Source: a virus (Duplodnaviria; Heunggongvirae; Uroviricota; Caudoviricetes). From it: 52,483 bases of DNA. Each line of letters opens with the position of its first letter. Within the stretch, counting starts at the first letter, position 1. Where the stretch lies: IMG/VR virus record IMGVR_UViG_2877251553_000005; one strand, 5' to 3'. The position numbers were made by a program. This document shows positions 51,001-52,483 of the stretch, piece by piece.

Positions 51001-52483
51001 CCGCTTCAGGATGCTGCAGATCTGGAAATTGCAACGGAGGAAGAAACCTCATTGCTGGAAGCCTGGAAAAAGTATCGGGTGTTGCTGAACCGTGTTGATA
51101 CATCAACTGCACCTGATATTGAGTGGCCTACGAACCCTGTCAGGGAGTAATCATTGGGATTATGCCGCAGCACGTCTTAAGCAAGAACGTGCTGCGGTTG
51201 GATGCTATTTTTTCCCTGAAGCGGAAAACATTACTACAGTACCTTGAACCTTGGTTTTAACATTCTCGAAATGCTCTGAGAGTATATGTGTTAAGCCTTC
51301 TTCGGAATCTTTTGTGTTTGAAAAGATGCCTTTCTGATTGTAAATGCGCATCAGTTTTTGACCGAAGCTATTGTGCACAACTCCATCGCCAAGAATTGTG
51401 GCTCCGTATAGAGTTCCATCGTCAGTTAAGGCCTGCGCCGCATTGCGTATTACACAGCTTTTTGTAGATATATTTCCAGGCAGGCAGTGAAGAAGGTAAA
51501 ACATGGAAATGGAATCAAATTGACCATGTAACGCCGCGGGATAAGGTTCAAAAACATCATGGCTAATTTTATGTTTAATTTTTGATTCCCCAGCCCTTGT
51601 AGATGCCGCGTTCAGGCTAGCTTCGTTCAAATCCATTAAAGATATCAGACTACTCTCAGGTACGTGAGTAAGGTAAAACCCAGTTCCAACACCAATATCC
51701 AGATGGTTGTTACCTACATGTTCCAGAAAGTGTGGAAGAAGGTGTTCCTTTGTAGGACATCCCCATGCAAGCCGATTTGATACTCCCAAAACCCACCAGT
51801 CATAAAGCTTTAGGGTAAGTGGTGTGTAAATTTTAGCCCCATCATCTGTGTTTTTTTTCATTGATTTCACCATGTTATAGTTTTATTTGTGAATTAAATC
51901 AATTATGGCGATGAATTACAAGGGGTTAAATGCTGCCGCAGCATAGCGATATTGAAATAGCCTGGTATGCTTCGATACAGCAGGAGCCGAATGGCTGGAA
52001 GACCGCCACCACACAGTTCTACATCCAGGAATTCAGTGAGTATATTGCGCCACTGCAGGATGCTGTAGATCTGGAAATCGCAACGGAGGAAGAAAGATCG
52101 TTGCTGGAGGCATGGAATAAATATCGGGTATTGTTGAATCGTGTTGATACATCAACTGCACCGATATTGAGTGGCCTGCAAATCCTGTCAGGGAGTAATC
52201 ATTGGGATTATGCCGCAGACACGTCGTATGCAGGAACGTGCTGCGGTTAGTTTGTGAGCTTTCGATAGTGGTTGTTATTTTTGCCCTTATTTGTTCCGGA
52301 GGCCATGGTTCAATGGTCCGTCTGCCCCCTGTGGTGATGTCAGCAAAATCAGCCACTGCGCGAACCACAATAGCCCGGGAAGATGCTGAAGATCACCAGG
52401 TAAAGCTGTCAGCGCAGAAACTGGAAGAACTGCTCGCATCAATGGTTAAGGATGAGGTTGATCGCAATGATGGGATTTATTGA

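Follow-up and report, generated by a model that had tools for sequence, protein, structure and literature searches.

A ybcY methyltransferase gene between two tail fiber assembly sequences of a lambda-like Escherichia coli prophage: a probable moron placed by crossovers in shared linker sequences

Introduction

The closest described counterpart of the locus studied here is the tfaD-ybcY-tfaX arrangement (b0561-b0563) of the DLP12 prophage of Escherichia coli K-12 MG1655. We analyzed its equivalent in a stretch of 52,483 nucleotides (nt) from a virus of the Caudoviricetes (IMG/VR record IMGVR_UViG_2877251553_000005), hereafter the window, where ybcY, a predicted class I S-adenosylmethionine (SAM)-dependent methyltransferase gene, lies between a tail fiber assembly gene (tfa) and the remnant of a second one. 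The prophage is lambda-like and integrated at ompW, and the locus lies at the right-hand end of its late (tail) operon. The locus is a common, already annotated arrangement of lambda-like E. coli prophages: ybcY (at least 95% identity) is found in 3832 of 5426 complete E. coli genomes, i.e., around 70%, with a maximum of four copies per genome, and the window-type right end (52150-52483) in 954 of the 5426. Having been annotated in K-12 for decades, the arrangement has little weight as a discovery in itself. We propose that the ybcY unit is very probably a moron that was placed by crossovers in shared linker sequences. The locus would then be a worked example of lambdoid mosaicism, with the Tfa C-terminal domain and a 33-nt hairpin as linkers that let fiber and chaperone modules on one side, and cargo and right-arm modules on the other, be swapped. 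What seems mildly new is the chimeric tfaX and a covarying hairpin with a near-invariant loop that occurs twice in lambda. The relevant features, in window positions, are the following.

50567..51150, plus strand: tail fiber assembly gene tfa, split by a 1-nt deletion at 50809.
50974..51200, plus strand: repeat copy A, made of the final 59 tfa codons (conserved C-terminal domain), the stop, a 14-nt spacer, hairpin A and TT.
51165-51197, no strand assigned: hairpin A, CCGCAGCACGT / loop CTTAAGCAAGA / ACGTGCTGCGG, with a perfect 11-bp stem and an 11-nt loop.
51205..51873, minus strand: ybcY, predicted class I SAM-dependent methyltransferase, a 222-residue open reading frame (ORF) assigned with Pfam profiles.
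51874..52022, no strand assigned: ybcY-upstream segment, which holds ybcY promoter-like hexamers and a divergent promoter-like site.
52023..52198, plus strand: 5'-truncated tfa remnant (the tfa-derived part of 'tfaX'), C-terminal domain only, with a 1-nt deletion at 52162.
52213-52246, no strand assigned: hairpin B, CCGCAG-A-CACGT / loop CGTATGCAGGA / ACGTGCTGCGG, with an extra A bulging from the 5' arm.
52247..52270, no strand assigned: R1 block, a diverged copy of the conserved R2 block (..GGTGAACTTYCGATAGTGCG..).

DLP12 has the same gene order and orientation as the window, with 96.8% identity over window positions 50713-52175, and hairpin A follows its tfaD with one G-to-A change. It differs from the window in that its ybcY is a pseudogene and that stf and most tail genes are deleted. 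Past window position 52175 its tfaX diverges and is followed by appY and ompT, whereas the window continues with hairpin B, R1 and the prophage end. The b region of lambda also resembles the window, since leftward cargo lies there between two copies of one hairpin at the end of the late operon, but the cargo is ea47 instead of ybcY and no tfa remnant precedes the second hairpin (HP2).

Two more general systems are relevant. The concept of morons reportedly goes back to the comparisons of HK97 and HK022 by Juhala and colleagues in 2000. Like the morons of lambdoid phages, ybcY is an extra gene between genes that are adjacent in relatives, with atypical GC content, a promoter of its own (here predicted) and a terminator-like hairpin at its boundary; unlike the terminator of morons, the hairpin has no U-tract in the tfa context. 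The invertible segments of Mu (G/gin), P1 (C/cin) and e14 (P/pin) occupy the same place in the genome and also have duplicated Tfa-family sequence. The window differs from them in that its repeats are direct and that it lacks an invertase, an alternative stf C-terminus, and crossover sites.

The methyltransferase gene lies between direct repeats

Comparison of the window with itself by BLAST revealed a direct repeat, 50974-51199 versus 52023-52248, with 88.1% identity over 227 columns, two single-base gaps and E=1.2e-79. The repeat comprises the final 59 tfa codons and about 50 non-coding bases with the 33/34-nt hairpin, and the stop codons are inside it, at 51148-51150 in copy A and 52196-52198 in copy B. 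An earlier note on this stretch had described near-identical segments, each with an inverted repeat, after the tfa stop and after a second tfa-like fragment. These segments are real, with hairpin A at one site and hairpin B at the other. The likeness is not confined to the 3' end of the tfa coding sequence, since 46 of 51 non-coding positions are identical, next to 154 of 177 coding ones. Between the copies, the lower-GC SAM methyltransferase gene that the note had placed on the opposite strand is indeed present at 51205-51873, with Pfam matches and a GC content of 0.411 (0.52 for the window).

The hairpin is a conserved element of lambdoid phages

Folded as RNA of the plus strand, hairpin A reaches -29.3 kcal/mol (z=-3.5, 1 of 200 shuffles as good) and hairpin B -24.2 kcal/mol (z=-1.9, 10 of 200 as good). 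Lambda has the hairpin twice, at 22573-22606 directly after tfa (HP1) and at 24162-24195 (HP2), the two copies bracketing ea47 on the minus strand. Hairpin B is identical base for base to lambda 24162-24195, and window positions 52212-52270 are 90% identical to lambda 24161-24219. The window tfa with hairpin A is 92% identical to lambda tfa with HP1, which carries a compensatory C-G to A-T change. Followed by R2, the hairpin lies between tfa and sib in HK97, 50-90 nt downstream of the minus-strand dinI stop in 2H10, YYZ-2008, and PhiR49_2, and is also found in many Shiga toxin (Stx) phages.

The R2 block (about 60 nt, ..GGTGAACTTYCGATAGTGCGAGTATTGAATGATTTCCAG..) always comes after the hairpin, as in L004 (lambda) at 5163-5260, L008 (HK97) at 2501-2596, and L009 (2H10) at 2501-2600. 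Many lambdoid phages share this block, their left flanks being unrelated. Read on the minus strand, it would constitute the 3' untranslated region of dinI or else a short RNA with the hairpin and U's at its end. We found no Rfam family for the R2 block.

To assess the variation of the hairpin, we scanned IMG/VR with a pattern anchored on R2 only, which gave at least 43 distinct sequences, and aligned 39 of them by hand on the loop. Compensatory double changes affect pair 4 (C-G to T-A, 5 sequences), pair 5 (A-T to G-C, 4), pair 7 (C-G to A-T, 3; to T-A, 1), pairs 8 and 9 (1 each), and pairs 1 and 2 (1), where the counts are of related sequences and not of independent events. The 11-nt loop CGTATGCAAGA is nearly invariant, and the stem frequently carries a bulged base. 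Because double changes occur at six or more stem pairs around such a loop, these comparisons indicate that the hairpin is a selected secondary structure and a conserved lambdoid element.

The hairpin has no annotation in the stretches of lambda, UTI89, B-1109, K-12, and HK97 that we examined, and we found no description in the literature of a terminator of the lambda late operon or b region at this site. The last 32 nt of the consensus of the Rfam family CssrB (RF02799, Shigella small RNA B) correspond to hairpin A. The match has 32.6 bits for a gathering score of 76, and only the terminal hairpin aligns. The 3' end of CssrB is itself only a terminator prediction (PMC3071730). We regard it as unlikely that the hairpin, together with R2, is an unrecognized functional RNA or DNA element and not a mere terminator. 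As such an element, it might serve for processing or protein binding, or form the 3' portion of a small leftward transcript; it might also be a favored crossover point through which cargo genes such as ybcY, ea47, and dinI are shuffled.

tfaX joins ybcY-upstream DNA to the end of a second tfa

In the window, tfa is read as two ORFs, 50567-50911 and 50908-51150, the second of which (with copy A) matches Pfam Caudo_TAP (PF02413) with 112 bits at profile positions 56-130 (cutoff 22.1). The TfaX ORF matches the same profile with 88.6 bits at positions 73-130 only (same cutoff of 22.1). Hence, copy B is a C-terminal fragment and not a full member of Caudo_TAP. Matches to full-length Tfa proteins in tblastn start at residues 27-32 of the 89-residue ORF, and neither tblastn nor Pfam revealed Tfa homology in residues 1-26. 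The first 31 'tfaX' codons are ybcY-upstream segment and are not derived from tfa. Tfa proteins are modular, with a conserved C-terminal helical domain and a variable N-terminal domain that binds the fiber (PMC9608196), and the piece retained in tfaX corresponds to the former.

The limits of the two parts can be seen in Ayreon (L236, 22973-23321), where the end of tfa is followed by hairpin A, the last 36 nt of ybcY, the equivalent of window 51900-52016, and then unrelated sequence. In other words, ybcY was precisely deleted (window 51241-51899), the upstream region was retained, and there is no tfa remnant. Hence, 51874-52016 derives from the DNA upstream of ybcY, and a distinct, illegitimate event joined it to tfa at about 52016-52023. 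This junction is common to all the ybcY-tfaX loci examined. Judging from these homologies, the tfaX ORF is chimeric, with its first part from upstream of ybcY and the C-terminal domain from a second tfa lineage.

The annotation pipeline PGAP calls a DinI family pseudogene in B-1109 at the equivalent of window 51948-52028 on the minus strand (L235 2299-2379). On the opposite strand, this DNA forms the beginning of the tfaX ORF, and the call found no support from Pfam or tblastn.

One might still expect TfaX to be functional, as a free-standing Tfa C-terminal trimerization domain that would, for example, interfere with the fiber assembly of competitors. This would be compatible with the crossover history proposed here, and we consider it improbable. 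Of 59 copies, at least 50 still have an open frame (82-101 residues), polymorphism leans to third codon positions with a ratio of non-synonymous to synonymous polymorphism (pN/pS) of about 0.27, a PHROGs family exists (phrog_2341), and K-12 now lists TfaX as a coding sequence. However, the pN/pS signal comes mostly from the part that recombines with functional tfa genes and is thus confounded, while the unique first 28 codons hold 3 synonymous versus 4 non-synonymous changes, too few to inform. Moreover, the -10 hexamer proposed for tfaX overlaps the ATG, RefSeq has a pseudogene in UTI89 and B-1109, and the gene is frameshifted in this window. The single-base gap at 52162 that breaks the reading frame of copy B is present in strain B-1109 and absent in UTI89, and is thus strain-specific.

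The two repeat copies come from different tfa lineages

In the 177-nt coding portion, copy A shares 94.9% identity with lambda tfa and 97.7% with K-12 tfaD, as against 87.5% with copy B. Copy B itself shows 84-90% identity to each full-length tfa gene compared. Since copy A is nearer to the genes of lambda and K-12 than to copy B, the two copies come from different tfa lineages, and these identities indicate that copy B is not a recent duplicate of copy A. The duplicated tfa module of the earlier note therefore stands as a repeat and not as a product of the insertion of the methyltransferase gene, since copy B belongs to another tfa lineage.

These identities also largely refute a tandem duplication in situ, or a target duplication at the insertion of ybcY, whose copies would have diverged since. 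Such an origin would account for two direct copies that are in register and end alike just past the hairpin, a geometry that unequal crossover between sister genomes could yield. We nevertheless find it very improbable. The intervening ybcY is at least 95% identical in all 3832 genomes, unlike the diverged copies, and the hairpin of copy B is of the lambda HP2 type, whereas that of copy A is another variant. Furthermore, most ybcY loci have no hairpin after tfaX (at least 38 sites have a single hairpin, with the flanks termed L0 and R0 below), and the DNA to the left of 52016 has no relation to tfa, as seen in Ayreon.

Both copies were also matched by the Rfam family IS009 (RF02111, gathering score 117), copy A with 223.8 bits (50909-51107) and copy B with 112.1 bits (51953-52156), just under the gathering score. 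IS009 also scores on the 3' coding region of tfa in lambda and 2H10. It thus appears, as a useful by-product of the analysis, that IS009 is essentially tfa protein-coding sequence, matched by sequence homology. IS009 is among the Rfam entries that were excluded as expected to carry ribosomal footprints, one reason being a location within a gene on the same strand (PMC5331693).

ybcY is best read as a moron

YbcY matches four Pfam methyltransferase profiles: Methyltransf_12 (37.5 bits, cutoff 30), Methyltransf_23 (29.0, cutoff 27), Methyltransf_25 (27.7, cutoff 27), and Methyltransf_11 (24.6, cutoff 21.2). It is a member of phrog_2132, annotated as 'function unknown', and shows only weak similarity in the PDB to O-methyltransferases of small molecules such as UbiG and JHAMT. 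NCBIfam has no equivalog for it, and neither NCBIfam nor PADLOC (defense systems) gave anything convincing. Structure prediction from the single sequence gave no usable model (mean predicted local distance difference test score, pLDDT, of 33). The true start of ybcY is probably the ATG at 51861, because the PHROG alignment begins at residue 5 and GGTGA precedes this second ATG. The gene is called YbcY in phage PhiR26_1 and is annotated as a ybcY pseudogene in K-12.

Hairpin A is found 7 nt past the stop codon of ybcY, between the convergent tfa (plus strand) and ybcY (minus strand). On the other side of the gene, we identified a putative minus-strand promoter with a -10 hexamer TATAAC at 51879-51874 and a -35 hexamer TTGATT at 51902-51897, spaced by 17 nt; another promoter-like site is predicted at 51929-51902. 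In K-12, the divergent ybcY/tfaX spacer has identical hexamers under a peak of RpoD holoenzyme in genomic SELEX (systematic evolution of ligands by exponential enrichment), together with H-NS (PMC3946193).

A moron is expected to be missing between the same neighbors in related phages, and this is the case for ybcY. PhiR49_2 has the end of tfa, hairpin A, R2, and dinI without the ybcY insert, ev099 has stf-tfa without ybcY, Ayreon has lost the gene, and lambda has ea47 in its place. The best reading of these comparisons is that ybcY is a moron, i.e., a cargo gene at the end of the tail fiber operon.

The IMG/VR contigs L053 (7249 and 12607) and L118 (8558 and 13919) have paired hairpins about 5.36 kb apart, each followed by the 3' end of ybcY. 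A complete ybcY accompanies the first copy. The second is cut off by the end of the contig, which leaves only some 40 nt of the ybcY 3' end. One left flank in L118 belongs to a different class (L17).

Flanks recombine at the hairpin and in the tfa homology

We surveyed hairpin sites by scanning IMG/VR with patterns that fix part of the sequence, which gave at least 158 sites. Sorted by the adjacent 40 nt, the left flanks make up at least 18 classes and the right flanks about 4-5. The right classes are R0 (the 3' end of ybcY, at least 69 sites), R2 (at least 52), R1 (the variant of R2 in the window, at least 28), and R3 and R4 (at least 2 each). L0 (the end of tfa) and L2 (the invertase-side flank of Turner and 2H10) were found with R0 and with R2 in all four combinations, which by the four-gamete test implies exchange between hairpin flanks. 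Mixed-type hairpins occur in Turner and L146. Hairpin pairs 1049-1050 nt apart, as in the window, were found in at least 26 loci, the window and UTI89 included, and a single hairpin with ybcY (the DLP12/PhiR26_1 type, followed by a hydrolase gene and ompT) in at least 38. As judged from this distribution, the hairpin acts as a recombination joint.

At the opposite end of the unit, the match with Turner, PhiR26_1, and 2G7b breaks off at 52154 and that with K-12 at 52175; both points fall within the tfa homology. The 59 tfaX copies have four different C-terminal tails on one common 5' part. We found no empty-site derivative of recombination between the repeat copies, and L101 has a point mutation in hairpin A only. 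The recombination footprint that the earlier note had suspected around an inserted methyltransferase gene is thus borne out by the insert-free relatives PhiR49_2 and ev099, the deletion in Ayreon, and the reticulate flanks. The note had described the tail fiber end as a place where host-range modules are commonly swapped; the exchange observed here moves cargo and right-arm modules too.

A history of crossovers in shared sequences

From these observations we infer the following order of events. The locus would have been assembled by recombination between lambdoid genomes at two shared sequences, without target duplication. The first would be the coding region of about 180 nt of the conserved C-terminal domain of Tfa, and the second the 33/34-nt hairpin that marks the border between the rightward late operon and leftward genes. 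Initially, ybcY would have stood right of the hairpin and been transcribed towards the late operon, terminated by the hairpin and a U-tract. Turner retains ybcY in such a position, just right of the hairpin and convergent with the late operon. One illegitimate join (around 52016-52023) would then have linked ybcY-upstream DNA to the middle of a tfa of another lineage and produced the chimeric tfaX. Subsequently, homologous crossovers in the hairpin (left) and in the tfa 3' homology (right) may have shifted the unit among stf-tfa modules and right arms. As lambdoid genomes are collinear, single crossovers would give viable recombinants. The product in the window would be a lambda-like tfa, hairpin A, ybcY, the tfa remnant, hairpin B, R1, and the prophage end.

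Several observations weigh against this history or against the terminator that its first step invokes. We found no phage in which hairpin B and R1 come after a full-length tfa of the copy B lineage and which could have been the donor; hence, the last step on the right side is deduced from the breakpoints only. The survey of hairpin sites, as said above, relied on patterns that fix part of the sequence. In the tfa context, the minus-strand tail of the hairpin is CAUAAUCCC and has no U-tract, which makes a leftward terminator function doubtful. Term-seq in K-12 lists no 3' end at the hairpin and reports a region of Rho-dependent termination on the minus strand, at 582001, around 110 nt past the hairpin (PMC7815308). 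This position (about L005 6002) corresponds to window position 51055 or so on the minus strand, antisense to tfaD, and suggests leftward read-through of hairpin A, in a strain with a variant hairpin (the G-to-A change), a ybcY pseudogene, and low expression. The stem variants are balanced between those that leave a G-U pair and those that leave a C-A pair (17 versus 14 cells) and thus show no strand preference.

The remaining evidence on termination is mixed. Outside the tfa context, the left flank mostly terminates in a run of A's, so that the minus-strand RNA has U's directly after the hairpin, as is canonical for an intrinsic terminator of leftward transcripts. The plus-strand tails in the window, UUGGAUGCUAUUUUUU (hairpin A) and UUAGUUUGUG (hairpin B), are moderately U-rich and non-canonical, and a consensus terminator scan flagged hairpin B only, on the plus strand. 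Folding energies did not consistently favor either strand. We infer that the hairpin is a terminator or another 3'-end structure, and only weakly so for leftward transcripts in the tfa context.

The hairpins might instead be the ends of a mobile cassette with ybcY as cargo, moved by recombination of the kind that acts on integron attC sites or of the IS200/IS605 kind. The stem covaries, the loop is conserved, and one base is bulged; the divergence of the left flanks begins exactly at the stem base; and hairpins flank the cargo both in the window and, with ea47, in lambda. However, no recombinase gene travels with the unit, most units among the matches listed have a single hairpin, and the hairpin is mostly cargo-free, fixed to R2 at the end of the late operon. 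In addition, the right end of the ybcY unit is the illegitimate tfa junction and not a hairpin. We thus hold a cassette to be most unlikely and retain crossovers in shared sequences as the explanation of the locus.

The earlier note had seen no invertase gene and advised looking downstream for one; there is none among the ORFs of 47000-52483, nor up to the prophage end in UTI89 and B-1109. Although Turner and 2H10 have a DNA invertase between tfa and the same hairpin, and tail fiber ends are the usual site of such systems, it is extremely improbable that the locus is the relic of an invertase-driven tail fiber switch of the Mu G/gin, P1 C/cin, or e14 P/pin kind with tfaX as alternative chaperone, because the repeats are direct, the window has no inverted repeat of 80 nt or more, tfaX is oriented as tfa and lacks a partner stf C-terminus, no invertase follows in UTI89 or B-1109, and a loose search for hix/gix-type cores gave 2 matches for 0.5 expected, none in stf, which is not an enrichment.

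Carriers and neighboring features

Hundreds of complete E. coli genomes, among them those of UTI89, S88, APEC O1, and the E. coli type strain, have prophages that match the 2-kb region with 99.8-99.9% identity. In UTI89 and B-1109, which carry the same prophage, the order is J, lom, stf, tfa, the methyltransferase gene on the minus strand, the tfa fragment, a DUF4376 fragment, an ompW 3' fragment, and yciE. The tfa and DUF4376 fragments are annotated as pseudogenes, and the prophage ends with the ompW 3' fragment, around 0.7-0.9 kb past the end of the window. The features next to the locus are the following.

47550-50567: stf, which precedes tfa.
52295..52483, plus strand: start of the DUF4376 pseudogene (PGAP: internal stop, N-terminus missing), which runs off the window; annotated in RefSeq for UTI89 and B-1109.

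A Pfam scan of 52202-52483 gave no match. The tfa gene is intact in UTI89 and B-1109 (585 bp, WP_000885580.1). Compared with UTI89, the window has single-base deletions at 47407, 50809, and 52162 that frameshift lom, tfa (in a G-run), and the tfaX remnant, respectively. B-1109 has the deletion at 52162 yet an intact tfa, and the three deletions could reflect pseudogenization or assembly errors.

RefSeq also has a hypothetical protein of 45 residues (WP_001309429.1) at 51123-51260 on the plus strand, over the tfa stop, hairpin A, and the 3' end of ybcY; this ORF is probably spurious.

Inside the prophage, two insertion sequences in direct orientation, at about 13195-14530 and 23560-24900, lie 10,367 nt apart and share an exact match of 213 nt, with less than 15% mismatch over around 1.4 kb more. 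We take them to be IS2-like from the InsC/InsD-like translations of their ORFs. Finally, stf contains three tandem units of 132 nt at 48967-49362, the second and third being 77% and 62% identical to the first, and the stf of UTI89 has one additional 132-nt unit.

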